64,000 nt of DNA from an uncultured Elusimicrobia bacterium (GCA_963702895.1 OY969767.1:64001-128000); one strand, 5' to 3'; numbered from the stretch's first letter, positions 26,311 through 42,262 are shown. The notes: a model not told the origin generated them from the sequence alone. A program made the numbers and translations.

Positions 26311-26482
26311 TCGAGTCTTTGTAGACTCTAGAAGAAGACACCGACAAGAATGGAATAAGTCTAACTTTCGCCAAGGTGAAAACCATACCCCGGTAAAGAC
26401 CCCATTCTTTCGTGATCCAAAGCTAGATAGAAGTGATGTCATAAAAACCCTTAATAGGCAAAGCTCGCATCACGAATGTCGG
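26311..26482 (+). ncRNA. Predicted IS110 bridge RNA
   Basis: 5' hairpin GAGTCT/AGACTC; basal stem CCGACA/TGTCGG; target loop with CTTTCGCC and ACCCCGG; donor loop with ATAGAAGT and TAATAGG. Confidence 0.82.
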
Positions 26483-26502
26483 CACTTACAAAAAGGAGCC
26501 TT

Positions 26503-27528
26503 ATGAACCCACCTCTCCATTACATAGGCGTTGATATCGCCGATCAAACCTTCAGCGCAACACATTACAGCTCAGCCGAACAAAAGTATTCCAAACATCA
26601 GACGCTCGCCAATACACCCGCCGGCTTTGAGGAATTCGAAGCCTGGTTTAAGAAACGCGGAGTCGATTCCACCAATACCGTGGTCTGCATGGAAGCCACC
26701 GGTGTTTATGCGGAGCAGCTCTGCTACTGGCTCTGTGCCAAAGGCTATCCGGTGTCGGTGGAGGCGCCGCATAAAACCAAACGCGCCTTTCACCCCCTGG
26801 GAGCCAAAAGCGACCCCATCGATAGCCGCCAGCTCGCCGAATATGCCTGGCGCTTTTTCGATCAACTCGCGTTCTGGAAACCCTCGGAAGCCTTGATCGA
26901 ACAAGTCCGTGTTCTTCTGACGACGCGCGAGCAGCTGACCGGCCAGATGACCGCCAATCAAAATGCCTTGTCGGCCATCAGCCGGAAAGTCGTTCGCACG
27001 ATCCTCGCCGAACAAAGCTTCCTGGACACCATCCGCCATCTCAAAGAACAGATCAAAAAAATCGATCAGGCCTTGGATCAACTGATCTCAAACCACCCCA
27101 CCATTGGCCCCATGGTGAGCTTGCTGCTCACCATCCCTGGGGTGGGCCGACTCTTGACGGCCCATTTGATGGTCATCAGCCAAGGCTTTACGCGATCCCT
27201 GGAACCCCGCCGCATCGCCTCGTATTTGGGCATGTGCCCACTCGAACACTCCAGCGGAACTTCCGTGCGCAAGAATGCAAGCTCTCGCGGGATCGGTCCG
27301 GACATCATCCGCAAGCTATTGCACCTGGCAGCCCGATCCCTTCGCACACATCATCAGCAGTTCAGGCACTACTTTGAAAGAAAAGTACAAGCCGGAAAAG
27401 CCAAACGCTTGGCGCTCAACAACATTGCCAACAAACTCTTGCGCATTATCTGTGCCGTACTGCGCACAAAGTCACCGTATCTTGCTGACTATAGGTCAGT
27501 CAATCCTCGGATCCTAAAAAATGCTTGA
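26503..27528 (+). CDS. IS110 family recombinase/transposase
   Basis: YIGVDIA (D), MEATG (E), KSDPID (D,D), TIPGVG, SSGTS (catalytic Ser region); SD AAGGAG. Confidence 0.95.
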   Translation: MNPPLHYIGVDIADQTFSATHYSSAEQKYSKHQTLANTPAGFEEFEAWFKKRGVDSTNTVVCMEATGVYAEQLCYWLCAKGYPVSVEAPHKTKRAFHPLGAKSDPIDSRQLAEYAWRFFDQLAFWKPSEALIEQVRVLLTTREQLTGQMTANQNALSAISRKVVRTILAEQSFLDTIRHLKEQIKKIDQALDQLISNHPTIGPMVSLLLTIPGVGRLLTAHLMVISQGFTRSLEPRRIASYLGMCPLEHSSGTSVRKNASSRGIGPDIIRKLLHLAARSLRTHHQQFRHYFERKVQAGKAKRLALNNIANKLLRIICAVLRTKSPYLADYRSVNPRILKNA

Positions 27529-27687
27529 CCGAGGTCATAGAAATCGGGGTGACGGCACAAAAAAGTGCATCGAGTTCAGACGATGAGGCAAAATGAACCG
27601 AAGATCTCCGGTTAGCTTCGGCCGCAGCAGGGGGCACTCATGAGGAGTCTCTTAGGCGCTGATTTTATCTACAAATAAAGTCAAAAT

Positions 27688-29075
27688 GAGTTCTTGTCAA
27701 ATGTACTGGAAATAGGGCAACGCCCCTTTCGTTGAATGTCTCTTAGGCCGCGACCTCCAGCTTCTCTCTTTCCACAAATAGTACTTCAACCAATTCCGGC
27801 TTTGCGATCGGCTTCCAGAACTGCGCTAAACGCTCAATGACCTTGTAGACGAATGCCACGCCTGTTCGGGATTTCTGGAACCGGCGCACGACTCGCGTCC
27901 GCAACCGCACTCCCGCGAAGACCGACTCAATCGGATTGCTCGTCTTCAAATGGACCCAGTGCTCCTTCGGAAAGTCGAAGTACCTCAGCAACGTGTCATG
28001 ATCCTTGCGCACACAAGCCGCAGCCTTCGGATAGCGAATTTCAAGATCCTCAGCCAACAAGGCCAACTGGTTCTCCGCGTCTTCGCGGCGCTCCGCCTGA
28101 TAGGCCACCCGCAGGCGATTGAGGACTTCATCCTGCTTAGCCTTCGGCACTTTATCCACGACGTTGCGCATCTTGTGCTTCCAACACCGTTGATCCTTCG
28201 CCGAGGGATACACCTCTGCCACCGCCTCCCAGAGCCCTCCGATCCCGTCGCCGATGACCAACAGCGGAGCAGGCATACCGCGCTCCGCGACCCCTCTCCA
28301 GATTTCCTTCCAGGAATCCCGGCTCTCCCGGTAGCCTTCCATCAGCGCGATCAGTTCCTTCTGGCCTTTCGCGTTGACGCCCACCAGAACCAGAAGCGCT
28401 GTGTTCTCTTTTTCCAGCCCCGCTTTTAAATACACGCCGTCTGCCCAGACATAGGCGTAACGCGTCTCCGATAGGTCCCGGCGACTGAACGTAGCCAGGT
28501 CCGACTGAAACTTCGCCGATAGACGCAGGATCGTGCTGGCTGATAAGGTGGCTCCATCCCCGATCAGTGCTCGCAACGCCGGCTCAAAGTCCCGACTCGA
28601 GAGTCCCTCCAGGTACAGCCGCCGGAATAACTCCTCGACCCCTTCCGTCCGCCGCTGGTAGGGCCGCAAGATGCTCGACTCAAACTCGCCTCCGTCCACC
28701 TGGGGCACCGATAGCTTCAGCCCCGCCCCCAACACCGTCACCTTCCGCTCCCGCGTTCCGTTCCGATAGCCTTTCTCCAGATTCTTCGCCCGTTCATAGC
28801 GCCGACGCTCTAAATACATCGTCACTTCTTCTTCCAGGGCCTCCACCAGCATCTTGCGCGCTCCTTCACGGGCCAGATAATCCACCATGCTCTCGCCTTT
28901 GTGCTGAGTCCCTTTCTCGTTTACAATGGTTTCCATAACGGCGTCTCCTTTTCGTTTATTGTCCGCTCGAACGGACAGGTTTGTGTGTTTCAACGAAAGG
29001 GTACGCCGTTTCTATTTCCTAAGGCAAATCCTTCCTTGCCTTAAAACCTATTTCCAGCACTTTTGATGGTAACTC
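27688..29075 (-). mobile_element. IS256-family insertion sequence (1,388 bp)
   Basis: Imperfect 29-bp TIRs (GAGTT....TCAAA.GT.CTGGAAATAGG, 23/29) and 8-bp TSD GTCAAAAT at 27680-27687 and 29076-29083. Confidence 0.92.
27743..28936 (-). CDS. IS256 family (Mutator-like) DDE transposase
   Basis: YRNG, YVWADGVY, LVIGDG, QRCWKHK.RN, KTSNPIES; SD AAGGAG before METIVNE. Confidence 0.95.
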   Translation of the reverse strand: METIVNEKGTQHKGESMVDYLAREGARKMLVEALEEEVTMYLERRRYERAKNLEKGYRNGTRERKVTVLGAGLKLSVPQVDGGEFESSILRPYQRRTEGVEELFRRLYLEGLSSRDFEPALRALIGDGATLSASTILRLSAKFQSDLATFSRRDLSETRYAYVWADGVYLKAGLEKENTALLVLVGVNAKGQKELIALMEGYRESRDSWKEIWRGVAERGMPAPLLVIGDGIGGLWEAVAEVYPSAKDQRCWKHKMRNVVDKVPKAKQDEVLNRLRVAYQAERREDAENQLALLAEDLEIRYPKAAACVRKDHDTLLRYFDFPKEHWVHLKTSNPIESVFAGVRLRTRVVRRFQKSRTGVAFVYKVIERLAQFWKPIAKPELVEVLFVEREKLEVAA

Positions 29076-29225: not shown

Positions 29226-32200
29226 ATGAACAAACGCCTCAAGCGTCTCATCGCGCTCCTCCTTGTTTTCTGCCTCGTCGCGGATCCCGCCACGGCCGCC
29301 GCCTGGGGAGCTTTCGCGACGCGCCGGCCGGCGCCCGCCGCCGCGCCAAGCCTGTTTGCCGAACAGGCCCTGACTGCATACTTAACCCAGCACCGGAGGC
29401 CCTCCTTCGGCGAATCCGCTCACCGTATTGATAAAGAAACGGGCCAGGCTCGTGATCCTTTACAAACAAAACCTGATTCCGCATCGAGCGCCCCGCTGGC
29501 GCGCTCCTTCCGCGGATCTGTTCGCACGACTGCATTATTGGTTTTGGCGCTGGCCGTAGGCGCCCTGACCAGCCCGGCGGAAGCCAATCCCATAATCGCG
29601 GCGATGAATCCTCCGGCGATTGCCGGCGCGATTGCCGCCGGGGCAGCGCAGAGCGGCCTCGGGACGATCGTTGTCCCCATGGCCCAGGCGCTCCAGGCCC
29701 AGGAGTCCCCGCTCGCCCCGCAGGCAGTCCAGGAACGAATCAAGACGCTGGCTGAGCAACTCCTCACCCATCCGGAAGCCCGGATGCGGATCGCGGCCGC
29801 TCGAGAGCTGGGCCGGATTTCCGACCCGGCGGCGATCGACAGCCTGATCCAAGGCATCAGCGACCCCGAGGGAAGGCGGCAATACAGCACGCACCTGGAA
29901 TTTGGGGTGAAGGTGGTAAAAGGTGGGCGTGATGCCGGGGTCGTGTCCTGGGCGATGGAAGGCCTCATCAAAATAGGAGATCCAGCAGCAGATGCTGTTT
30001 TGGGGGAGCTGAACCAGCAGCTCGCAGATCCGACCCCCTCGTTGGTCGGCCTTCACAATATAGCCGTGATTTTGGGAGAGGTCGGGCGGCCAAACGCCAT
30101 CCCCTCCCTTCAAACACTCCTCCAATTTGAAGATCCCGAACTGAGTTCGGTGGCCACGAAAGCCATCGACATGATTCAAGCTCGCGCCTTGCCGAAGGCC
30201 CTGTCATGGATTGTCTGGTTGGCCACCCTGGGACTCTTCCCCACGATTCTCATGGCGGCCTCACGACGTTCACGCATGCCTAAAACGAAAACGATGTCCC
30301 CGCCAGCGAAGAAAGAAAACCGACCCAAAGATCTTGGCCAGCTCGGAAGGGAAAAACTGGAGAGACTGAATTCCGCGACGCTCTTCGATCTGGTGCTGCT
30401 GCAACTGCATCCCACAGTGGCGAAGAAGATTCTTACCGCAAAGGGACATAAACCCTTTAAAGATTTGCAGGATTTAAGCTCTCGGCTGCAGGGTCAAGGT
30501 CTGAACAGGGCTGAAATCAGTTCGATTGTCGTGCTTCTGCAACAAAGCGAAATACCCATAGCGCACACAGCGGTTCTAGACTACGTGCGCGACAAAAGCG
30601 TCAATTTCTCCGAAACAGCGGTATTGCTATTGTTGGAGGGCGTTAAAGCCACGCCTGACGACCTTCTTCTTATGGCGCGCGCCATCGCGCAGGCGATCCA
30701 AGAAGAGAAAACAGTGGACGAAATCTTGGAGCTCCCGGAGCTGCAAGCCAAGGGAAGCGCTTTCCGGTTTGCCCGGAATCTTGAGTGGAAGGCCCGGCGC
30801 TTCTTGGACCAGTTTCGATTTGACCTCCACATGGCACTTGCGCGTTACAACCTTACAGCAGAAGACTTCGACGTTGCCGCGGGTTATGCCGCTGAGGCTC
30901 GTGACGCGGCGCGCTTCTTTGATTTACAAGACCCAGATAATCAAAAAAGAATCAAGGATCTTGAGCAACTGATGGGGGACATCGACTCTGCTCGGTTCCT
31001 GCATCGGCCTAGCGCTAACCCCATTGGCCAGACTATGGGCTCCGGCCCGCGCCGGGGCGTGAGGGGTGGAACCGAGGCCATCGAACCGAAGGTCATCGAT
31101 TATCTTGAGCGGCAAACAAGACTTTCCAGGGATAAGGTTCAACAAGTTCTGGGAGAACTCAAAGTTTCCAAGGCTAATCAGTATGGGGTCTGGCTTCGAC
31201 AAATCTACGACCTTTCGCGATCAAATGGGGGTATGCCGCTGAGCCGTATGCCCCGCGACAATGGCCTGATTGCCGCCCTTCGCGCGCTCCAGGACAAAAA
31301 GACGAGTTCGCCCTCTCCGAGCGCGCCTCGTGACGTTCAGAAGGAGCGGCGGATGATCCTCGCCGAAATCCAGGCACTCCTCAAGAAAATTCCAGCGCCC
31401 CCCGGGGAGACACGGCCCGTCATCACCGACCAACAACTCGCGCACGCCCTCGATAATCGCATTGATTTGTCCAACACCCTTCAAGTCGTCAGTATTCCCC
31501 GATCGGTAAAACGCGAAATCGGCCCTCTGCTGGAGAGACTCGAAAAGAGGTGGCCCACAATACTGTCTCCGGCAGAGTTCGCCTCCCTCACTCCCCACGA
31601 CCACCTGGCGAGAGCCCGGCAGATGTCGGGGGCGAAAAGATATGGCGAAGCAATTGCCGCTTACCAACAGGTTTTGAAGGAAGCGCCCCGCTATGACTTT
31701 GAAATCAGACACATTGCCATGCTGGAATTGGCGAACGCTTATCGTTTATCGGAGGACTATGACGCCGCCCTGGCGGTGCTGGCACAATTGCTCGAGGCTC
31801 TTCATGGGCGGACCGTGAACCCTCTAGAACCTTTGGTTAATGACAGGTTCGAGCATGACGCGCTTTACCTCCAGGCGGAGTGTGAAGCTGCCCTGGGTCA
31901 CGTCGATCTGGCGATCCATGATTACCTGCAATCCCTCAAGCTCCTGGAGAATCGCCGGAAAGCAATCGCGGGATCAACGTCTCTCCGGGACGATCCAAAA
32001 AAGACAGCGGCTGCTCTGGCAGAGCACGACCAACTCATCCTCAGCCGGTCCTGTTCCCTGGCGCGGGTTTACATGAAGCAAAAGCAATGGACCTTGGCCA
32101 AAGCGGCCTTGAAACGGGCACAGGCCGTCGACCCGGAAAACCCGGTGTATCTGGACGCCCGCCTCTCTTTTGCCAACCTGTACGTTTATGCTCTCTTAAC

Positions 32201-35200
32201 GGCCGATCCCCGTTCCCTCGAGCGCGATCTTCAAGAGATTGAACACTTGCTCCTGGAAGCGGTGGCCTTATCCCAGGCGCTGCGGCTGCGAATTGAGACG
32301 TCGCCTCCTTCCGCCCAAAAGGATGCCCTTTTAAAAAGATTTCTTGAAGACGAGATCTCGGCAAGAGCCGACCTGACGTTTCAAGTTCTGGAGCCGCAAC
32401 ATCGGTATGCCGAAGTGGAACAGCAGGTCCGAAGTATATTGGCGATAAGCCAGGATGAAGAGCTCAAGCAGCAGTGCCGGAACGCGTTGGCATGGGGTGC
32501 TTATTACCAGGAGGATTTGTGGGGGGCTTGGAAAGCCTTGCACCTGGAGGTGAACCACCTTCCGGTCGATTACCAGCCCGTGTTGCTGGAGAAGGACAAT
32601 CTGAACCTCTGGACCCTCGACACCATGATCCGGCTGCGCCTGGCTCAGCACCAGGGCCAACAGAATGTGGAGGCTCAAGAGGTCGATAGGAAGCATCCCT
32701 TGCCGTCTGATCCCGTTTCGCGGGGACTGGAAATCCGCTGGCGTCGCGAAGCGGCCTTCAGTGATGCTTTGGGCCCGGCCGGTACCGCCCTGTGGCGGCT
32801 GGCGGAGATGGAGCGCGGCGGCGAGGCCGGCGCGGCCCCCGCGCTGAGGCCTTCGCCCTACGACCGAATCCGGCAGGGGCTGGACAAGCTGCGCTTTTCC
32901 CGGGAGAAACTTGGGAAGCCCGACCAGGACATTGCCGAATTACTTATGGTGGTAGGCGAGATCGCGGTCGAAGCCCGCTGGCTGGACCTCGCCCAGGAGG
33001 CCTTCGATCTCGCCGTCGAATTTTACGATTCACCCCAGACCCGGCTCTACGCGGAGAGCATCCCCGCGCTCTGGTTGAAGGACGACAGGTCTCGAGACGA
33101 GAAGAAGACAGCGCGTGAAAGGTATGACTCCCATCGATTTCTCTTCCTTGAGAAAAGGGAAACCCCATCATGGGTCAGCGAGTCCCAAACAGCGCTTCAG
33201 GACCTGGGAGAGAATCCCACGGTGCCGCAATTGGAAAAATTCCTCACCGATCTGCGGGCCCGCACGCTCTTCTTTGAAGATTTCCAATTAGACCCGGATC
33301 CGTCGATCGCCAGGGCCGCTTTGGCGGGCCGACTCAATCAGGCGCGCTTGCGATCGGAGTGGCTTGATCATTTCGAAACAGACTTAGAGGCTTTCGGAGA
33401 TCAGGCCGATTCGATTAGAGCCCTGGTGTGGGATGTTTACAAGATCAAACTGGGGAACGGCCACCTGGGTGTGGACCTCGTGGATTGGCTGGGATCGATT
33501 CCGCCGGACCAAAGAGAGGTTTATGTCAAAGCCCTCTCTCTTGACAAACGCCAAAACCCCTTGATTAGCCTAGTAGAGGCGTGGCTTTCGCTTTACCTGA
33601 CCAGCGTCTCGTTTATTCTTCCGCCCAAGGCGCGCAACAAGCTGGCGTCCGTGGCGGTGACACGAGACTGCGCGCTGACCGTTCTCGAACAGATTGTCCT
33701 CCGGATGAGGAAGGCGAAGCTGCAGAATGTCGCCGCCAGCGAGGCCGCCGGAGAAATCGCCGATGCCATTCATTCTGACCGCACGGACGTGGAGGTGATG
33801 GCGGAGGTTGATAAGATCCTGGGCCTCCCGCAGACGGCTGGATCGGCGAAGGAGCGAACCGGCGAACCGGCGACAGAACCGCAAAATGTTTCGCCGAAAC
33901 GCCCCCTCGCCGATTCGCCCGCTCGACCGCCCAATCTGTCCCCCGTCGCCGCGTCGGATGTCGCGCGCGCGGCCGGGAATGGGAGTTCCTCCGGTGCCGT
34001 GGATGTGGTAATCCTCGCGTGCGTGGCCGCGTTGGCGGGAGTTCTTCGCTTTGCTCTGGGTGATGATTCTGGTGCTGCTGGGGTCATGGCTGCAGGTCTC
34101 ATCCCTTGGAAGTCCCTTCGGCCCGTGGTGATCTGGATACAGCGGCAATTCGAAGATCCTTTGGCTGAATTGGGGCGTGGACAGGAATCGGACACGCAAG
34201 GACCTGCCGCGCATTTGGGCGCAGAAACAGTTCAGAGAATGTGGGTCGAACTCTCCAAACTGTCGCCCCCTGCAGGATCGCAAGGACGGGGACCGCTTGA
34301 AGATGCGCTCCGTCGGGACTCTGGCCAGGATGACGAGGATCATGCCGAATTCAAGTCGAAGATCGAAAACCGGAAGCACATCCTGAATACGCTCATGGCC
34401 TTTTTGTCTGTCGAGGTGGTCTGTGAATCACTGGCCCATCAATTTACCAGGGCAGGGCACGCTGTCAGGCTATTGTCAGACCAGATCAAAGGACAACTTT
34501 CACTTCGCAAGCCAGGGGCATCCTATTTCATCAGTCCAGCCCTCGCCAGGACATTGGATCTTCATTGCGGGCCATCCGCCAAGGCCCTCGGGAAAGCACT
34601 CCTTCAGGAAGTTTGGCTGAAGGATCCTATCTCGACCGCGAAGCTCCTGATGACATTAAGCACCACAGGCGAGGAGCATTCTTTCCAATCGGTTGTGAGC
34701 GTCTTGGGGATCGAACGCCTGCGCCAGGCCCTGCTCCGCTCCCCTTCCATTTGTGCGCAAACAATCGAGAGACTGATGAGCCACCCTCACCGTTCGGGAC
34801 AGTGGGCCGAGTGGTGGCGCACCCAGACCTCCTTCCCGATGCCGTTGCCGTTTGGAGCATGGGAGTACCTGGCGCACAAAGACGTCTTTGGACCGAAGGT
34901 GCTGCAGGACAGCTTCGACCAGCATCCCGTCGAGCTGGGAATTCTGGTGATTGAAATTGAACGGCTCCCTGCCGCGTTCGAGGCCTTGGTTCAGGGCTTG
35001 CATGATTCGAAGCATCCGTCCGATCCCCTGTGGCGGCTCAAGGGTCTCGTCTCCTCCAACCCGGGGGTCCTGATCCCGCTGCTCCGTGTGTTGTCTGACC
35101 CGAAGAGTCAAAGGGCGTTTGCTCACCTGATCCGCAGGTGGGGGCCTGTGGATATCGCGGACTCTCTCGAGACCAGCCCCAGCGAATTGATCCGCGAGCT

Positions 35201-36263
35201 TGAACACGCGAGAAAGGAGGAGAAATTCAGTTTCATCGATAGCCTTCGCCACAAAATCCACAAACGCGTCTTTCGTTCGCTGCACAAGAATCTTACAGAT
35301 CTGCAGAAGTCCTTTATGCCCGAGCGTTGGAAATCAGAAGAGTTCAAAAAGAAGGCGACAGATGAGATCGAACGGTGGGTCAAAGAGCACCCGTTTGGAG
35401 TGAATTATATCCTGCCACGGGTCTTGAGAAGGCGGCTGCGAGGCCAAACGTATCAGTGGACATTTCTGGGGGGTGACTCCGCAGTGCTTATCTATGCGCA
35501 GGAATGGGCGCCCGGCTCCAGCGTGCTCGCTCCGCCGACTCAGTATACGGACCATATGAATGCAGTGATTCCTCTGGAGCACGGCCTCACTCTCAAGCGG
35601 TATATCATCCATCGCGCTCCCGAAGTGGGAGCCCAGGCGCTCTCCTCGAGCCGACACAAAGAGGTGGTTGACCTCACACTGGCGGACACGCGCCAGCCTG
35701 AGAAAGACCGCGTCCAATGGCTCTCCACCAAGACGAACGAAGTCGAGCAAATCGTCAACAACGCCGGGTCCAGGGTGTTCGTTTTGAACATCGTTTTCTA
35801 CGGCTACCCGCTCGTCACGACGTTCATCCCGGAAGGCTCCCAGCCAGACCGAAATCAAGTGAGATGCATTGCCCGGCGTCACGTGGCCGATGATCCGACC
35901 TTGCCGATCGGTGAGGCGCTGATCGGAGAGCGAGGAACGGTCAAGCTCAAAAAAGACCAGGTCGCGAAATTGAGACGTACGTTAGAGGCCTCTTTGGAAG
36001 GAAATGTTGACATGCCGGAAATCTATACAGCCGAAGGGACCGCACTCATCACGCCCATAGAGGCCTTGGACTATATGGATCAGCACCGCCTCACGATCTA
36101 TCGCACCAGAGATCATGCCTATGTTTTCAAGTCCTCCGGCTTCGCGGCATCGCAGGGCGGCGCGTCGGGGACCCCGTTGTCACCGAAACCCTCAAAAACA
36201 TCCCCCCCTGCGGACGCTTCTCCCTCCCCATCGCTGCTCCGACGCCTCGCCGCCGCCGCTTAA
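29226..36263 (+). CDS. Giant modular protein 1 (2,345 aa): signal peptide, HEAT, TM, HhH-like, TPR, TM, cupin-like
   Basis: Long ORF; MNKRLKRLIALLLVFCLVADPATA; HEAT 'RIAAARELGRISDP'; TPR region; ends LRRLAAAA. Confidence 0.85.
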   Translation: MNKRLKRLIALLLVFCLVADPATAAAWGAFATRRPAPAAAPSLFAEQALTAYLTQHRRPSFGESAHRIDKETGQARDPLQTKPDSASSAPLARSFRGSVRTTALLVLALAVGALTSPAEANPIIAAMNPPAIAGAIAAGAAQSGLGTIVVPMAQALQAQESPLAPQAVQERIKTLAEQLLTHPEARMRIAAARELGRISDPAAIDSLIQGISDPEGRRQYSTHLEFGVKVVKGGRDAGVVSWAMEGLIKIGDPAADAVLGELNQQLADPTPSLVGLHNIAVILGEVGRPNAIPSLQTLLQFEDPELSSVATKAIDMIQARALPKALSWIVWLATLGLFPTILMAASRRSRMPKTKTMSPPAKKENRPKDLGQLGREKLERLNSATLFDLVLLQLHPTVAKKILTAKGHKPFKDLQDLSSRLQGQGLNRAEISSIVVLLQQSEIPIAHTAVLDYVRDKSVNFSETAVLLLLEGVKATPDDLLLMARAIAQAIQEEKTVDEILELPELQAKGSAFRFARNLEWKARRFLDQFRFDLHMALARYNLTAEDFDVAAGYAAEARDAARFFDLQDPDNQKRIKDLEQLMGDIDSARFLHRPSANPIGQTMGSGPRRGVRGGTEAIEPKVIDYLERQTRLSRDKVQQVLGELKVSKANQYGVWLRQIYDLSRSNGGMPLSRMPRDNGLIAALRALQDKKTSSPSPSAPRDVQKERRMILAEIQALLKKIPAPPGETRPVITDQQLAHALDNRIDLSNTLQVVSIPRSVKREIGPLLERLEKRWPTILSPAEFASLTPHDHLARARQMSGAKRYGEAIAAYQQVLKEAPRYDFEIRHIAMLELANAYRLSEDYDAALAVLAQLLEALHGRTVNPLEPLVNDRFEHDALYLQAECEAALGHVDLAIHDYLQSLKLLENRRKAIAGSTSLRDDPKKTAAALAEHDQLILSRSCSLARVYMKQKQWTLAKAALKRAQAVDPENPVYLDARLSFANLYVYALLTADPRSLERDLQEIEHLLLEAVALSQALRLRIETSPPSAQKDALLKRFLEDEISARADLTFQVLEPQHRYAEVEQQVRSILAISQDEELKQQCRNALAWGAYYQEDLWGAWKALHLEVNHLPVDYQPVLLEKDNLNLWTLDTMIRLRLAQHQGQQNVEAQEVDRKHPLPSDPVSRGLEIRWRREAAFSDALGPAGTALWRLAEMERGGEAGAAPALRPSPYDRIRQGLDKLRFSREKLGKPDQDIAELLMVVGEIAVEARWLDLAQEAFDLAVEFYDSPQTRLYAESIPALWLKDDRSRDEKKTARERYDSHRFLFLEKRETPSWVSESQTALQDLGENPTVPQLEKFLTDLRARTLFFEDFQLDPDPSIARAALAGRLNQARLRSEWLDHFETDLEAFGDQADSIRALVWDVYKIKLGNGHLGVDLVDWLGSIPPDQREVYVKALSLDKRQNPLISLVEAWLSLYLTSVSFILPPKARNKLASVAVTRDCALTVLEQIVLRMRKAKLQNVAASEAAGEIADAIHSDRTDVEVMAEVDKILGLPQTAGSAKERTGEPATEPQNVSPKRPLADSPARPPNLSPVAASDVARAAGNGSSSGAVDVVILACVAALAGVLRFALGDDSGAAGVMAAGLIPWKSLRPVVIWIQRQFEDPLAELGRGQESDTQGPAAHLGAETVQRMWVELSKLSPPAGSQGRGPLEDALRRDSGQDDEDHAEFKSKIENRKHILNTLMAFLSVEVVCESLAHQFTRAGHAVRLLSDQIKGQLSLRKPGASYFISPALARTLDLHCGPSAKALGKALLQEVWLKDPISTAKLLMTLSTTGEEHSFQSVVSVLGIERLRQALLRSPSICAQTIERLMSHPHRSGQWAEWWRTQTSFPMPLPFGAWEYLAHKDVFGPKVLQDSFDQHPVELGILVIEIERLPAAFEALVQGLHDSKHPSDPLWRLKGLVSSNPGVLIPLLRVLSDPKSQRAFAHLIRRWGPVDIADSLETSPSELIRELEHARKEEKFSFIDSLRHKIHKRVFRSLHKNLTDLQKSFMPERWKSEEFKKKATDEIERWVKEHPFGVNYILPRVLRRRLRGQTYQWTFLGGDSAVLIYAQEWAPGSSVLAPPTQYTDHMNAVIPLEHGLTLKRYIIHRAPEVGAQALSSSRHKEVVDLTLADTRQPEKDRVQWLSTKTNEVEQIVNNAGSRVFVLNIVFYGYPLVTTFIPEGSQPDRNQVRCIARRHVADDPTLPIGEALIGERGTVKLKKDQVAKLRRTLEASLEGNVDMPEIYTAEGTALITPIEALDYMDQHRLTIYRTRDHAYVFKSSGFAASQGGASGTPLSPKPSKTSPPADASPSPSLLRRLAAAA

Positions 36264-37720
36264 GAACGGCTTGGCCGGGGGTTCTGGAAGTTCAGGCGGC
36301 GATTGAATTCGGAGGCGAGCCAGTCGGCCTGGCTTTTGTCGCGGAGCATCGCGAAGACGATGAGCGGCTTGCTGACTCTTCGTCGCAGCATGATCCCATA
36401 GGATGGATTCTGGTTGGTTTGCGCCATCACCGAGATGCCGGCCTCGAGAACCTCTCCCGGCGGCGCTTTCCAGGATTTCTGAAAACCCAGGAGCCGGTAC
36501 GTCAACACCACGCCGTCGGACCCCATGGTGAGGCGCACTTCGCCCGCCGCCGCCCACAGCAGCGCCAGCACCACGATCATCCCGAACAGGCCAGCCACCA
36601 GAGGAAAAATAAGCGGGGCTCCCGCTTTTGAGATCACCATGGCGACCGCGACCGTGAACGCCAACGACAGGAGGCATCCCAGGGCGCTGGCGGCCCCTCC
36701 CGGCGGAGCCAGGATGAACTGGGTGCCGCCCGGCACAGACACGATGCGGACCCGGGAAGGCGCTGGCGCCTCGCCCCGGCTGGCGGGCCGGATGAAGCCG
36801 TCGGGAAGCGTTTCACGCGGCTGGCTCGGGTCTTCCGGCAGGGTCCGGAAGACCGGCACCTCAAAGATCAGGTTGAGATCGGCGCCCGGCACGGCCGCCG
36901 ACACCCGCAGCCGCCAGATCACCTGGCGGTCCGCCGACTCGTCATTCCAGGGCTCGCACTCCGGCGGAATGGGGATCGACACGGGAACAGCCGTGAGCGC
37001 CTCCGGATAAGAAGGGACGGGGCCGGGCACGCGCGCGCCCGCTTCCCAGAGGATGTGCTCTTGCGTATCGTCGGAGCCGTGCGTGCGCCGCAGGCAGGAA
37101 AGTTTCACTTCAAAGCCGGCTGCCGGGTCAAGCCGCGGCGGGATCAGCACCACGCCCTTGAGGCTGCCGCCGATGGCCGCGGGCGCCGCGCTCATGTGAA
37201 AGACGCACCGGCGGAACCGGAGCCAGCGCAGCGTCTGCGCGAGCGCCCAATACAGCAGCCCCGCGCCAAAGAGCGGAAAAATAAGAATGAGCAAAATCCG
37301 CCAGTCGCCCTTTTGCGCATACTCCCGGACCGCCAGAACGGCTCCCGCCAGTGCGGCCGCATTCCAGAAGAGGGAAAACCCCGTGATGAACAACAGGCCG
37401 GCTTCTCCTTTGGCCGGAAGCACGCCGCGGGCAAAGTCATCCCGCCACAGCCAGGGGCGGCCGGGGTTGGCGGCGCGCTGTTCAGCGCGCCGGCGCTCCT
37501 CGCGCCGGCTGTAGAGGAGAAGCGCCGCCAACCCGCACGGAAAGGCGAGGAAGACGACGCCGAAAGCCGCAAGGGCCAGCCCCTGCGGCCACTGTCCCTT
37601 CACCGCCAGGCCTATGCCTATCACGACCGCCGCCAGGCCCGCCAGAAGAAAAGGGACAAGAAAAAAGGATAGGCCGATGGGGGCTCTCCGCCACCAACCC
37701 CGGACGCGATCGGTCGCCAT
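36260..37720 (-). CDS. Hypothetical multi-pass membrane protein
   Basis: Three TM hairpins; 'PWLWRDD', 'SLFWN', 'IFPLFGAGLL', 'FEVPVF'; TAGGAT 6 nt upstream of ATG. Confidence 0.8.
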   Translation of the reverse strand: MATDRVRGWWRRAPIGLSFFLVPFLLAGLAAVVIGIGLAVKGQWPQGLALAAFGVVFLAFPCGLAALLLYSRREERRRAEQRAANPGRPWLWRDDFARGVLPAKGEAGLLFITGFSLFWNAAALAGAVLAVREYAQKGDWRILLILIFPLFGAGLLYWALAQTLRWLRFRRCVFHMSAAPAAIGGSLKGVVLIPPRLDPAAGFEVKLSCLRRTHGSDDTQEHILWEAGARVPGPVPSYPEALTAVPVSIPIPPECEPWNDESADRQVIWRLRVSAAVPGADLNLIFEVPVFRTLPEDPSQPRETLPDGFIRPASRGEAPAPSRVRIVSVPGGTQFILAPPGGAASALGCLLSLAFTVAVAMVISKAGAPLIFPLVAGLFGMIVVLALLWAAAGEVRLTMGSDGVVLTYRLLGFQKSWKAPPGEVLEAGISVMAQTNQNPSYGIMLRRRVSKPLIVFAMLRDKSQADWLASEFNRRLNFQNPRPSRS

Positions 37721-37782
37721 GGCCCAATCCTATACGGCATGGCTCATTTTGGCAATGGCGAATGGAGGAGGAATGGCCGCGC

Positions 37783-40700
37783 TTAGGCAGCCTGCAAGAG
37801 GCCGGGATGGGGCAAGGCGCCAGACGCGCTCGCCTGAGGCCTCCGGAGAAACCGGAACAACCCATACATGGCCACGGCGCTGATCGCCGAGATGAGGATC
37901 GGCCCGGGACCAGCCTGGAGAAGAATGGATCCGCCCAAGAGGTCTATCCGTTCGCCATACGAGCCGAGGCTCGCTGGATGGGCCGCCTCCACGCTTCGAT
38001 AGAGAAAGCTGGCGAAGTTCTTCATCAAGAAGGAATTGAGAAGCAGCAGCGGCAAGGCGCTGAAGGTGGTGCTTGTCCAGCTTCCTTGTCCAGCCTCCGG
38101 CAGGGTGTCCCACTCCACGTCAATGCCGTCCGGAGGCAGCTGCGTGAAGGTGATTCGAAATCCACCCTCGGGGACCTTAGACACCTTGAATTGAAAGTGC
38201 ATCGACGGGAGATCTCGATCCCCGTCAACGTTATCGTCCGCACCGGACGACCCGATGCTGACGACCTGGTCAAACTCAACCTTCACAGGCGATGTGCCTT
38301 CGACAAACCACAGCCGGCCTCCACGCTGATAGAGCCTGAAACGAAATCCTCGCGTGTCGATCCGGATATTATTTCCGAAATGAACCATGACGGGATCGAC
38401 GTTTTCGCCGGGCGGCGCTTGACGCGTTGGAGCGCCTAGACGCGCCAGGCAAATACCCTTCGCCCAATACAACCTCTTATGAGGACCCATCCCAAGATAT
38501 CCTGCACCCGCTGCCCTCAACGCCAAATCCTTCGGAATATGGTCAACATCCTGGGAGTGCATGGAGCGCCTTACGGGAACGGCGGCCCCCTGCGGCCCCG
38601 ATTCCAATCCGAGGATCAGTCGGTTCTGCTCCAAGAGATCCGTGAGAAAGCTCGGAGCGTGGACAAGCTCAAAGGACCCCGAGCTGACCCTTTCAACGGC
38701 CAGGGTGACCCGTCTGGAAAACGACAGCAATCTCGACGCTCGATCGTCAGAAGGCCAAAACCGGTTGACGTTTCGTGCGTCCGCGTCATCCGTCCCCTCG
38801 AAGAGGACCTTTTTTCCATCGGGCGTCATTTTCTCTATTTCTCGAAAGAGGCGCTCCGGAAGAATCGCCACCCTGTTTGAATCAGGCAATCTGACCGCGA
38901 CCGCGGAAGCAAGGGATTCTCCGTACAAAGCCAGCAGGTGATGCTGGCCAACCGGGATGTCCGTCATCTGAGGTAGGACCAGATGCTCCAGCCCTTCATG
39001 GATCAAACCGGCGAGACCGTTGTCGTGGATGAACAGTCGGATCGTCCCTGTTTCGCTGGGCGCGTCCGGTTCCGATTTCCAACAAAACGCCTCAACCCGT
39101 GTCTCATTCTCCTCAAACAGGAGGTCGGAAGGGAAAACAAGGACTTCAAACTGATACCGCTTTCCGTCGATCAAGAGCTCTGATGGATCGGACCTCAACA
39201 AGTCGGCCAATCTTCTTAACGGATCGATCAGCTCGGGCAGCTGCTCAAAAAGGATTTGGGTCGTGAAATCTTGTTGATCGATCCACTGATCAATCAGGCG
39301 AGCGGCATCTGACAATTGTGTTCTTGTGGCGACACGGCCCAAGTTAATCTGGCGCTTCCCAAAACCCTCCTGCTGGGCTTCGGTAAACCCATCGCCCAGC
39401 AGGCTGTGCTGGCCCTGGGTGGGCGTGCGCGGCGTCGGCGCTGTCGTCGGTTCCTCCTTGCCTTTTGGCGACGCCGGCTTGGACGGAGGTTTCTTCAATT
39501 GAATGACGAGTTGATCACCCTTTCTCAAGACCGTTTGATCTCTAACCGGAATCATCTGTCCATTATCTGAATGGGGGGCAGCGCCGGGTGACGGACGTTG
39601 CAGGTAGACCACGAACGAGGGGTTCACATTTCCCTGCAGTTTGAACAGGCCGTCCAAGAGGAGCGCGTGAGTTTCGGAAACCTCTCTGTGATCATGGAGC
39701 CAAGGCCAAAATTCTCTCCACCGGAGAGGCTGGTCGCCCTTCATGAATTCGCGCAAAAGTTTATCCGGCACGATGGAAGCGCCCTGATCCGCCGATTTCA
39801 CACGCTTTTTGAACTCGGCTCGCCGTTTGTTCCGCGAGGCCGCAAGAGACGTCTGTGCCGCCCCCGCGATCGCCAGCGCCGCCCGACGCTTCCTTGCAAG
39901 ATCCGCACGGATCTTCTTCTGCTTTCTGGAAATACCTTGGATGACTCGTCGCAGATGGGCCAGGTCCTTTGGGGAAATATCTTTATCACGTAGACGTTCG
40001 GACAAATCCCCTATGCCCGATTGCTCCTCCAAATAGCGTATGGGAATTTTCATATTCCTCATTGCTTTTAACAGTTCGAGCAGTTTCGACCGCCGGGCCT
40101 CCCTTTGTTGCTTTTCATCTGCTGTGAGGCGGTGCCCTCGCCCCTCCTTGACGGCTGGAGGCGTTAAGACTCTTGACTTCGGATCTCCATGCGGCCGTTC
40201 TTTTGTCGAGAGTCTTATTCGAAGCCTTTTAATCAGCAGACCGCCCATGGCTGGAGATTCCATTGAGAAATATTGCTTCAAGTCCTCGAAGCTCTGGAAT
40301 GGGTTCGCCCCTCCTGCGTCGGCAGCTCTCCTGGCGGAGAGCAGCGTCTCCCGTGTGGCAAGTGGAATTCCATAATTAATGAGGGATTGGATATCCCCGG
40401 AAATGTCATACAAGAATTGGAGTTCCTTGGCTTCGGCACGAGCGGCGGCTTCGTCTTTTGGTGGAAGGAAAACCGCGGCGATCACGCCTGCGATGCCGAG
40501 CGCTGTCGGCGCGGCCGCCCACAGCGCCTCCGGATTCCATCGCTCAGCCAGCCCGCTGACCCATAAGGCCGCCGGATGCGTCAGCGAACTCCCCGAGAAG
40601 TCCGACAGATGCGGCCAAACCAGCGGTAAGACCATCGCCAGCAAGACAATCAGGACGGATGCGCCCAGCAGCAGGACGGCATTCGAAAGGCCTCGATTCG

Positions 40701-42195
40701 ACGATGGACTCAGTTTGATGATGATTTTGTCGCCCGGCTGCAAGACCACAACTTCTCTGTTGTTGGAGATGGGAAGAGATAGCGCCTGGATGGCCCGGGG
40801 TTGGGGGCCTGGAATCGACCTTAGAAGCTTAACAGTAAACGCACGGTTGGTATTCCCCTCCGGTGTGAACAGGCCGTCCAAGAGGAGCGCGTGGGTGTTG
40901 GAATCCTCTCTGTGTTTTAGGAGCCAAGACCAAAATTCTCTCCACTCGTGAGTCCGGGGGTCCTGCATGAATGCGTTCAAAATGTAATCCGGCACGATGT
41001 AAGCACCCCGATTCGCCGAAGTCACGAGCTCTTTGAGCTTGGCTTTCTGATCGTCCCGCGAGGCCCTATGAGTCTTACGTGCCGCCACCGCGCTTGCTAG
41101 CGCAACCTGATGCTTCCTTGCAAGATACGCACGGATCCCCTTCTGATTTCTGGAAATAACTTCCACAATTCGTCGCAAACGGTCCAGTTGTTCTTCGGTA
41201 ATAGTATCTTTACGATCGGACAATTTCTTAAGACCTGCTATGGCCCCCAAATAGGGTATGGAAATGCCCATTTCCTCCATTGCGCCGAACAGGGCGGCCA
41301 GTTCCAACCGCCGGGCCTCCCTTTGTTTCGGTTGATCTGCTGTGAGGGGCTTTCCTGGCCTCTTCATGACGGCTGGAGGCGTTAAGACTCCCGCCTTCGG
41401 TTGCCCTGCTTCGCGGAAAGTCTCTAGAAGCCCAATAGTCAGCGGACTGGCCGTGTCTGGAAATTCCAATAAGAAATATTGATTCAAGTCATGGAAGCTG
41501 CGGAATGGGTTCGGATACCCCTCATCGGCAGCTTTCCTGGCCTTGAAAAGCAACTCCATCGTGGCCGGGGGAATTCCATGCTCAGCGAGGGATTTGATAT
41601 CCCCGGAAATGTCATACAAGAATTGGAGTTCCTTGGCTTCGGCACGAGCGGCGGCTTCGTCTTTTGGTGGAAGGAAAACCGCGGCGATCACGCCTGCGAT
41701 GCCGAGCGCTGTCGGCGCGGCCGCCCACAGCGCCTCCGGATTCCATCGCTCAGCCAGCCCGCTGACCCATAAGGCCGCCGGATGCGTCAGCGAACTCCCC
41801 GAGAAGTCCGACAGATGCGGCCAAACCAGCGGTAAGACCATCGCCAGCAAGACAATCAGGACGGATGCGCCCAGCAGCCGGTCGGCGTTCGGAAGGTCTT
41901 GATTCGACGAAGCCAAGAGTGTTTGTGCGGCAACCCGCGAGGCCGCTCGAGTCCGGTTTGCTTGTCGCCATCCCTCCACCCACTGGCGCATGTGCTGCCC
42001 GCTGGCGATGCCGTGCGTGAAGGGGACGGCCAGCGCGGCGAGGGCCTCCTGATCCAGGCGCGCCGCGTCCATTCGAGTCATCAGCGAAACCCTGCTTGTG
42101 GCGGGAGGACAAGAAAGGACGGAAGCCGTCGCCGGCTCGATGAGCAGGCCGGGAATCAAAAGGAGCGAAATCAAACGCCTGAGGGTATTGGGCAT
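37783..42195 (-). CDS. Giant modular protein 2 (~1,470 aa) with a ~402-aa internal duplication and an HExxEH motif
   Basis: MPNTLRRLISLLLIPGLLIEPATA; duplicated TM+HhH+beta-grasp-like module; GLIHEGLEH; ends GLLQAA. Confidence 0.85.
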   Translation of the reverse strand: MPNTLRRLISLLLIPGLLIEPATASVLSCPPATSRVSLMTRMDAARLDQEALAALAVPFTHGIASGQHMRQWVEGWRQANRTRAASRVAAQTLLASSNQDLPNADRLLGASVLIVLLAMVLPLVWPHLSDFSGSSLTHPAALWVSGLAERWNPEALWAAAPTALGIAGVIAAVFLPPKDEAAARAEAKELQFLYDISGDIKSLAEHGIPPATMELLFKARKAADEGYPNPFRSFHDLNQYFLLEFPDTASPLTIGLLETFREAGQPKAGVLTPPAVMKRPGKPLTADQPKQREARRLELAALFGAMEEMGISIPYLGAIAGLKKLSDRKDTITEEQLDRLRRIVEVISRNQKGIRAYLARKHQVALASAVAARKTHRASRDDQKAKLKELVTSANRGAYIVPDYILNAFMQDPRTHEWREFWSWLLKHREDSNTHALLLDGLFTPEGNTNRAFTVKLLRSIPGPQPRAIQALSLPISNNREVVVLQPGDKIIIKLSPSSNRGLSNAVLLLGASVLIVLLAMVLPLVWPHLSDFSGSSLTHPAALWVSGLAERWNPEALWAAAPTALGIAGVIAAVFLPPKDEAAARAEAKELQFLYDISGDIQSLINYGIPLATRETLLSARRAADAGGANPFQSFEDLKQYFSMESPAMGGLLIKRLRIRLSTKERPHGDPKSRVLTPPAVKEGRGHRLTADEKQQREARRSKLLELLKAMRNMKIPIRYLEEQSGIGDLSERLRDKDISPKDLAHLRRVIQGISRKQKKIRADLARKRRAALAIAGAAQTSLAASRNKRRAEFKKRVKSADQGASIVPDKLLREFMKGDQPLRWREFWPWLHDHREVSETHALLLDGLFKLQGNVNPSFVVYLQRPSPGAAPHSDNGQMIPVRDQTVLRKGDQLVIQLKKPPSKPASPKGKEEPTTAPTPRTPTQGQHSLLGDGFTEAQQEGFGKRQINLGRVATRTQLSDAARLIDQWIDQQDFTTQILFEQLPELIDPLRRLADLLRSDPSELLIDGKRYQFEVLVFPSDLLFEENETRVEAFCWKSEPDAPSETGTIRLFIHDNGLAGLIHEGLEHLVLPQMTDIPVGQHHLLALYGESLASAVAVRLPDSNRVAILPERLFREIEKMTPDGKKVLFEGTDDADARNVNRFWPSDDRASRLLSFSRRVTLAVERVSSGSFELVHAPSFLTDLLEQNRLILGLESGPQGAAVPVRRSMHSQDVDHIPKDLALRAAGAGYLGMGPHKRLYWAKGICLARLGAPTRQAPPGENVDPVMVHFGNNIRIDTRGFRFRLYQRGGRLWFVEGTSPVKVEFDQVVSIGSSGADDNVDGDRDLPSMHFQFKVSKVPEGGFRITFTQLPPDGIDVEWDTLPEAGQGSWTSTTFSALPLLLLNSFLMKNFASFLYRSVEAAHPASLGSYGERIDLLGGSILLQAGPGPILISAISAVAMYGLFRFLRRPQASASGALPHPGLLQAA
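40390..41878. repeat. 283-bp direct repeat (40390-40672 and 41596-41878)
   Basis: Copies look identical by eye, offset 1,206 bp; flanks are diverged. Confidence 0.9.
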
Positions 42196-42262
42196 AGCCG
42201 ACGAGACGGCCCGAAGACGGGACACGAGATCCCTCGCCTTCCCGACGGGCCGCCTGACCCTA

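Follow-up and report, generated by a model that had tools for sequence, protein, structure and literature searches.

Giant mosaic membrane proteins are already in print for the phyla concerned here. Those described from Omnitrophota and related phyla ('Archaeovorin' type) are long mosaics that carry signal peptides, numerous membrane helices and a mixture of metabolic and regulatory domains, and are encoded near pilus-type secretion genes (10.1101/2023.11.21.568195; 10.64898/2026.06.07.730766; PMC10066038; PMC11573180). In the accessible parts of these accounts the N-terminal regions of the giants are generally without identifiable domains (10.1101/2023.11.21.568195), roles in predation and host attachment are proposed (10.1101/2023.11.21.568195; PMC10066038), and the role of the giant genes of Omnitrophota and Elusimicrobiota, together with the handling of chains of 2,000 to 24,000 residues or longer, is a standing question. 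Separately, FtsH, a membrane-anchored AAA+ zinc protease, is described in the parts of two papers seen as degrading LpxC through a nonpolar C-terminal degron as well as ssrA-tagged proteins (PMC8138137), with cytosolic stretches serving as pulling handles (PMC13039401). Here we analysed two giant modular proteins (proteins 1 and 2) encoded in a 64,000-nucleotide stretch of DNA (the window, G000:C1:64001-128000) within a 2.72-Mb single-contig genome (G000) whose relatives are recorded as Elusimicrobiota. The two proteins share a short N-terminal leader and a C-terminal tail ending in Ala-Ala, and we relate this tail to a second FtsH and a lipoprotein found in the same genomes.

Like the Omnitrophota giants, the window proteins are long mosaic open reading frames (ORFs) with a signal-type N-terminus and several membrane helices, as judged by hydropathy only. 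Moreover, a putative TIKI-like head domain that begins the long-leader members of the family starts long ORFs in 83 of 101 Omnitrophota genomes. The window proteins differ in being shorter (2345 and 1470 amino acids (aa), under the 10,000-aa 'giant' threshold given in the accessible part of 10.1101/2023.11.21.568195, with a paralog of 12,887 aa in G000) and in having a short leader found in one family only. Conversely, the published accounts, so far as they are accessible, describe neither a shared tail nor a short leader with an F-x-x-Q-A-L motif nor a TIKI-like head; neither 'FtsH' nor 'TIKI' occurs in the main texts, supplements excluded, of three of them (10.1101/2023.11.21.568195; 10.64898/2026.06.07.730766; PMC10066038). 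A literature search with most subscription papers and preprint supplements outside its reach returned no account of the tail, the leader, the head or the FtsH-lipoprotein pair, and NCBIfam holds no model for the leader, tail, head or lipoprotein. A scan of the window proteins and 19 further members gave no Pfam hit to a divergent SecA DEAD domain (the 6672-aa member was left out, and divergent domains can escape such a scan). A pilus/type II secretion system-type locus adjoins a cluster of family genes at G000:C1:730476-807853, not the window genes.

The initial annotation had proposed, from the two proteins alone, a family defined by its matching ends, and this proposal was borne out. Both ORFs are present with the N- and C-termini that it quoted, and their bodies are unrelated (best BLASTP E = 0.10). 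A hidden Markov model (HMM) seeded on the two window leaders only found 11 leaders at E < 0.01 in G000, nine of them within long ORFs, and all nine of these ORFs end in Ala-Ala (AA) or Ser-Ala (SA); excluding the two seeds, the count is seven of seven. The remaining two leaders sit at broken genes whose downstream frames end in AA (G000:C1:1408982-1416426 and 1604215-1608903); one is frameshifted between the leader and the FxxQAL motif and the other has in-frame stops, reflecting either decay or assembly error. With a profile of 88 leader sequences, 17 matches at 16 loci were obtained in G000, and 14 of 14 intact ORFs end in AA or SA, several of them having been in the training set.

The pairing extends to related genomes. 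A 13-row leader profile run over 40 relatives matched nine of ten same-family genomes, with 5-33 matches each, and gave just three weak single matches outside that family. The 88-sequence profile found no match in G007, G011, G015, G020 or G144, so that the short leader seems, from these profile searches, to be confined to one family (f1) among the genomes searched. Tails were counted in 80 of 117 planned regions around listed leader matches in nine related genomes. These regions held 97 leader ORFs, of which 29 ran off the contig or region and were dropped, leaving 68 with a stop codon and 60 of at least 300 aa. AA ends 34 of these 60, [AS]A 46 and [AS][AS] 52, compared with 25 (AA) and 31 ([AS]A) of 1086 background ORFs, all from G000. 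Seven leader-selected ORFs do not end in [AS][ASG], including one ending in GA and one with an assembly gap whose continuation ends in AA. The FxxQAL motif lies mostly 20-35 residues past the Asp-Pro of the leader, and a [QE]A[LFIVM] site is present in 89 of the 97 leaders of relatives. Taken together, leader and tail go together in ten genomes: a scan by leader alone recovered other proteins with both ends and an enrichment of AA endings among them (46/60 with [AS]A versus 31/1086). The same annotation had also raised the idea of polyproteins cleaved at their linkers, a suggestion the family does not favour: internal FxxQAL-like sites are rarer than in the background (7 in 134,598 aa versus 43 in 490,959) and Tat-like signals are not enriched (2 versus 5), other cleavage motifs not having been searched.

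In G000, 22 ORFs of 535-12,887 aa carry the tail, with Ala at -1 and L, F, V or I at -5 in all 22, a set partly picked by the tail itself. Each of the four Ala codons and of the three stop codons occurs among these genes, which also differ in the DNA that follows; the variation of Ala and stop codons indicates that the motif is selected at the protein level. In 25 of 74 tailed proteins a predicted helix lies no more than 60 residues from the end, followed by a tail of 17-58 residues, mostly 17-25. These helix-proximal tails are basic (mean 4.9 Lys/Arg versus 1.2 Asp/Glu) and none of the 25 family tails is shorter than 17 residues, whereas in background proteins with such an end helix the tail is shorter than 17 residues in 60 of 118. 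According to the positive-inside rule, basic stretches flanking membrane helices lie on the cytoplasmic side, and the basic tail is therefore probably cytoplasmic, its side being read from charge only and its helices from a crude hydropathy scale. By the same scale, predicted membrane helices number about 3 per 1000 residues across the family. Sortase LPXTG, PEP-CTERM and GlyGly-CTERM signals likewise consist of a helix and a basic tail at the ends of many unrelated proteins; the present family differs from these in lacking a fixed motif before the helix, in conserving the last five residues and in having no helix within 60 residues of the C-terminus in 49 of 74 members. A 4068-aa tailed protein (G000:C1:730476-742682), lying directly after TadG/TadE-like genes, has neither leader type by the profiles, and a 3245-aa ORF ending in QA occupies the matching position in a related genome (G004, L148).

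A candidate reader of the tail is encoded in the same genome. The gene for a 546-aa FtsH paralog (G000:C1:711029-712669) is followed by a lipoprotein gene, and the pair precedes a Tad locus and a five-giant cluster (730476-807853). Across 115 paralog sequences, Walker A and B, the pore-1 FVG and the second region of homology are conserved, HExGH is present in 114 and the third zinc-binding Asp in 115, together with a distinct aromatic pore-2 loop and an unusually conserved membrane hairpin. Where FtsH has its periplasmic domain the paralog has a short conserved loop, and it scores 476.5 bits against the TIGR01241 FtsH equivalog cut-off of 600; the missing periplasmic domain and the low score set it apart as a separate FtsH subfamily. 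The proposed arrangement resembles FtsH with C-terminal degrons such as those of LpxC and ssrA, in the accessible parts of PMC8138137 and PMC13039401, in combining a membrane-anchored AAA+ zinc protease with a putative nonpolar C-terminal handle and a probably cytosolic tail of about 20 residues. It differs in using a single-copy paralog below the equivalog cut-off, with no periplasmic domain, its own pore-2 loop and a lipoprotein neighbour, and in having apparently tens of genome-encoded tagged giants per genome. A family start or a long ORF with the tail lies within 1.5 kb of the paralog at seven of 29 loci (one of the tailed ORFs is atypical, ending AAQ), and coordinates suggest three further loci with an adjacent family gene. 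Of 45 paralog loci, 33 have a lipoprotein motif after the paralog. A model of the first 175 residues of the lipoprotein (predicted local distance difference test (pLDDT) score 86) gave middling alpha/beta matches in a fold search, the best to a CamS-type lipoprotein (Z 6.4), with BON, KH and ring-building domains lower. Complex prediction with two copies of the paralog membrane hairpin and the lipoprotein gave no answer (score 0.20, mark 0.32) and was not used. Several neighbouring observations were made. Two 740-aa Gly/Thr-rich proteins with hydrophobic C-terminal halves are encoded at G000:C1:698365-702806, just upstream of a regulator gene and the paralog gene. A second, stop-interrupted lipoprotein copy (G104:C16:23527-23940) lies beside the end of a TIKI-headed giant gene. 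At two loci with a paralog and no lipoprotein (L227 and L240, in G040 and G019), nearby large proteins share a different leader and have no Ala-Ala tail.

The paralog and the lipoprotein track the wider family, marked by its head. In the same 121 Elusimicrobiota genomes, the head starts long ORFs in 42, the paralog is found in 53 and the lipoprotein in 48; the paralog occurs in 38 of 42 head-positive versus 15 of 79 head-negative genomes, and the lipoprotein in 41 of 42 versus 7 of 79. At the level of families, the lipoprotein is present in all 13 that are head-positive and in one of 14 that are head-negative. In the mixed families f20 (1/10) and f26 (1/6), one and the same genome in each has head, paralog and lipoprotein. 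Among 41 closer genomes, 20 have head and lipoprotein, 18 have neither, two (both 73% complete) have the head only and one (G007) has the lipoprotein only, an agreement of 38/41 that holds in all 14 families. Among the 101 Omnitrophota genomes the head count of 83 is accompanied by 87 for the paralog and 88 for the lipoprotein, with the paralog in 78 of 83 head-positive versus 9 of 18 other genomes and the lipoprotein in 79 of 83 versus 9 of 18. The Tad ATPase was considered as the dedicated machine and rejected, as in the Elusimicrobiota it does not track the family (32 of 42 head-positive versus 65 of 79 head-negative genomes).

The head itself is a 430-residue domain that takes the place of the short leader in five tailed ORFs of G000; in the 12,887-aa protein a signal of the short-leader type precedes it. 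It has no Pfam or NCBIfam match above cut-off. In 15 sequences D40, H42, E71, R324 and G388-H391 are invariant (D-x-H, E, R and GGFH), and GG[FY]H is present in 108 of 108 head representatives of at least 700 aa. Members of the TIKI/EreA/ChaN superfamily share a pattern of conserved His, Glu, Arg and GxxH residues, all of which the head carries. The head model (pLDDT 84) has its best end-to-end structural matches to EreC (6xcq), BcR135/136 (2rad/2qgm), HopBA1 (5t09) and ChaN (2g5g), with Z 6.8-7.5 and root-mean-square deviations of 3.9-5.9 over 146-186 aligned residues; a Foldseek search gave no match at E <= 0.001, with EreC ranked top at 0.1. Because of these end-to-end matches we assign the head, with moderate support from the predicted structure, as TIKI/ChaN-like. 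It appears to have the same split alpha/beta core as the TIKI/TraB/EreA/ChaN superfamily and differs from it in a large helical insert and in fusion to giant cargo. Atlas searches with the head and with the lipoprotein returned unnamed Elusimicrobiota and Omnitrophota clusters only (scores 0.89-0.94), and the head profile matches 8,514 clusters at 50% identity. The window proteins lack this head.

Proteins with the head also share the character of the tail. In one set of TIKI-headed giants 12 of 18 end in [AS]A, and 18 ORFs from 14 further genomes end in AA (12), SA (1), NA (1), AG (3) or otherwise (1). All 20 Omnitrophota ORFs compared (1,830-23,964 aa) have a nonpolar last residue, and 18 have Ala or Ser at position -2 (pattern xx[AS][ALMIV]), half of the tails (10/20) ending in L, V, M or I. 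Of 94 head cluster representatives that reach 1000 aa, incomplete ones included, 51 have [AS][ALIV] as their last two residues, compared with 49 of 1042 background ORFs ending in [AS][ALMIV]. By Pfam the cargo is mostly cytoplasmic enzymes and regulators: FBPase, TIM, GHMP and PfkB kinases, RmlD, URO-D, methyltransferases and glycogen synthase, with histidine-kinase ATPase, DnaJ and sigma-70 region 4, plus SLT (lytic transglycosylase) and LysM.

We consider that the tail of these likely inner-membrane-anchored giants may be a cytoplasmic handle for the dedicated second FtsH, co-inherited with the lipoprotein, which would trim or destroy them; we give this reading a probability of roughly 0.5. 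The leader would send the chain into the membrane, and hydrophobic hairpins would keep the tail, along with the enzyme and regulator domains, on the cytoplasmic side. The paralog could then engage the tail, thread it through its pore and pull from the C-terminus, so that spent or jammed giants would be removed or, if pulling were to halt at folded domains, pieces would be released by C-to-N trimming. This mechanism is modelled on the known use by FtsH of nonpolar C-terminal degrons and cytosolic handles.

Several observations weigh against this reading. Protein 1 has no helix near its tail, in some TIKI-headed giants across the phylum a long soluble region rather than a helix precedes the tail, and the topology calls rest on a crude hydropathy scale. 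The co-occurrence was counted among related genomes with kinship uncorrected, and the lipoprotein profile was trained mostly on family-positive genomes. G007, of the same family and 95% complete, keeps paralog and lipoprotein with no leader or TIKI-like head detected; it is syntenic with G000 on both sides (L224, G007:C1:28000-47999 versus G000:C1:714380-812828) but without the ~98-kb block of Tad genes and five giants. The pair also occurs with no detected head in six small genomes of genus g42, in G083 and in nine Omnitrophota genomes. Eight genomes have the paralog with neither lipoprotein nor head, which suggests that the paralog has other work or outlasts loss of the family; in four viewed paralog-only genomes with Tad-adjacent loci it lies beside TadE/TadG-like genes, and two of these carry other leader-bearing proteins that have no tail. 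Finally, ClpX, Lon, canonical FtsH and Prc are also encoded in G000 and are possible readers of an Ala-Ala end.

The last point bears on the alternative that ClpXP, Lon or canonical FtsH reads the tail as an ordinary degron, and that the paralog and lipoprotein are inherited together on other grounds, for instance because their carriers share a host-associated lifestyle. ClpX prefers an Ala-Ala end, and the family tail resembles the ssrA degron in its two small nonpolar last residues; the transfer-messenger RNA tag of G000 itself ends L-A-L-A-A, transposases in G000 also end in AA or NA, and the persistence of the pair without the family in G007 and others fits the same view. However, the family tail differs from ssrA in being gene-encoded, with a basic stretch and a hydrophobic residue at -5, and in Omnitrophota it often ends in L, V, M or I, unlike the Ala-Ala that ClpX prefers. 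A housekeeping degron also leaves unexplained why the paralog gene lies beside tailed genes and why, in f20 and in f26, one genome alone has the whole set. On balance we regard it as unlikely. The initial annotation had likened the Ala-Ala end to the ssrA/ClpX motif and suggested a degron or unfoldase handle. The end does have the appearance of a degron or AAA+ handle, for which the FtsH paralog and lipoprotein are the candidate machine, whereas ClpX is unsupported as its specific reader: in Omnitrophota one tail in two has L, V, M or I as its last residue, and the second FtsH tracks the family.

Next in order, and doubtful in our judgement, is a tail that acts as a C-terminal signal for export or translocation. 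The giants would then be effector payloads delivered to host or prey, driven by the FtsH paralog with the lipoprotein as its partner in the periplasm. Such a role would suit a cargo that is a random mix of enzymes and regulators with lytic transglycosylase and LysM, a head in the fold family of ChaN, EreA and HopBA1, a giant cluster that follows the Tad locus in G000 and an unusually conserved membrane hairpin in the paralog, and Omnitrophota giants have been linked to predation in the accessible parts of two papers (10.1101/2023.11.21.568195; PMC10066038). However, the protease site is intact in 114 of 115 paralogs, so that a fully threaded chain would be cut, the many predicted membrane helices and the signal-type leader better fit membrane insertion, and the Tad ATPase does not track the family. 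The initial suggestion of export from the cell is not borne out: the tails have a cytoplasmic look, and the cargo domains that can be recognised are for the most part enzymes or regulators of the cytoplasm.

It is improbable that the tail, once exported, is cut by Prc/CtpA, the tail-specific protease of the periplasm. Prc prefers small nonpolar C-termini and is encoded in G000, but it is present in all five genomes tested, including two without the family, and the helix-proximal tails are strongly basic, as expected for the cytoplasmic side. It is hardly credible that the shared ends merely remain from gene duplication or from an element acting at the DNA level, and carry no signal in the protein, since, although the family genes are paralogous mosaics with repeated cassettes, codon and stop usage and the downstream DNA vary as described above and the pattern spans two phyla with otherwise unalignable sequences. 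A DNA element at the gene ends was rejected on the synonymous variation, with -5, -2 and -1 kept while their neighbours vary.

A more far-reaching proposal is offered tentatively, as possible though less likely than not. An undescribed envelope pathway of Elusimicrobiota and Omnitrophota could use the FtsH and lipoprotein to pull a genome-encoded tag on thousands of shuffled giants, giving active pieces or membrane passage and arming host-dependent bacteria with interchangeable cargo; the window proteins would then be pared-down members whose TIKI-like head has been reduced to a leader of 50 residues. If the paralog does process rather than destroy its substrates, this would be a new use of the FtsH motor in bacteria. 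The shared tail, the head and the two-gene partner allow assays with one short peptide, one protease and one lipoprotein, no giant expression being needed, and the leader and tail allow the family to be recognised and annotated.

The features of the two window proteins are collected in Table 1.

Table 1. Features of the two giant proteins, in window coordinates
Feature	Position	Strand	Evidence
Giant modular protein 1, 2345 aa, short-leader (class A) family member	29226..36263	+	ORF and leader profile
Protein 1, conserved signal-peptide-like leader, consensus R-x-x-A-L-L-L-V-P-C-L-x-x-D-P-x-x-A-x-A	29226..29303	+	Cleavage predicted from shape alone
Protein 1, F-x-x-Q-A-L motif	29355..29372	+	Motif alignment of leaders
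Protein 1, HEAT repeats	29742..29870	+	Pfam HEAT_2, E 2e-9
Protein 1, predicted transmembrane helix, then basic stretch	30198..30254	+	Hydropathy only
Protein 1, ComEA/GspK-like helix-hairpin-helix (weak)	30408..30527	+	Under Pfam cut-off
Protein 1, TPR repeats	31632..32141	+	TPR_19 E 5e-8, TPR_1 E 8e-7
Protein 1, C-terminal tail (-5 hydrophobic, Ala-Ala end, Arg upstream), preceded by Pro/Ser-rich linker	36231..36263	+	Sequence
Giant modular protein 2, 1470 aa from ATG, class A member, no Pfam hit	37783..42195	-	ORF and leader profile
Protein 2, conserved signal-peptide-like leader	42124..42195	-	Leader profile
Protein 2, L-x-x-E-A-L variant of FxxQAL motif	42040..42057	-	Leader alignment
Protein 2, first copy of 400-residue unit: predicted hydrophobic hairpin, PF motif, basic helical region	40711..41910	-	Self-comparison
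Protein 2, second copy of 400-residue unit, 60% identical to first	39496..40704	-	Self-comparison
Protein 2, basic 20-residue tail after last predicted membrane helix, end Leu-Leu-Gln-Ala-Ala	37783..37845	-	Sequence and hydropathy

Protein 2 has an alternative GTG start at 42225, which would give 1480 aa. Hydrophobic segments between the domains, as initially described, were recovered, six being predicted in each window protein on the crude hydropathy scale. The accompanying claim of a ComEA-like helix-hairpin-helix in both proteins fared less well. The string on which it was based, PF-x-[DS]-[LF]-x-[DE]-[LI], is indeed rare and shared, with three occurrences in ~826,000 residues of genome ORFs, all within proteins 1 and 2. 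However, two of the three copies stem from the internal duplication of protein 2, the Pfam scores in protein 1 are below gathering (HHH_6 and HHH_3, in that order, 21.5 versus 25.6 and 14.5 versus 27 bits; E 2.7e-4 and 0.038), and protein 2 has no Pfam helix-hairpin-helix match; we consider the assignment weak.

Between the two giants, a 486-aa predicted membrane protein is encoded on the minus strand (window 36260-37720), with no Pfam or NCBIfam match. Window positions 3-8663 hold the start of a 13,690-aa ORF (G000:C1:31591-72663) that has neither short leader nor tail and whose first 2887 residues are without a Pfam hit. An IS256-type transposase lies directly before protein 1 (window 26476-28993), where an IS110 gene is also found, and copies of this transposase lie within about 250 bases of a family gene at four of nine listed sites (this one and G000:C1:808009, 1400608 and 1731903); the IS256 transposase proteins themselves end in Ala-Ala. 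Finally, a repeated DNA element is read in frame within at least 24 ORFs, including family heads and a DnaX-like gene (G000:C1:750022, 1725844, 2386879, 817576 and others), one 15-base core occurring 41 times on both strands.

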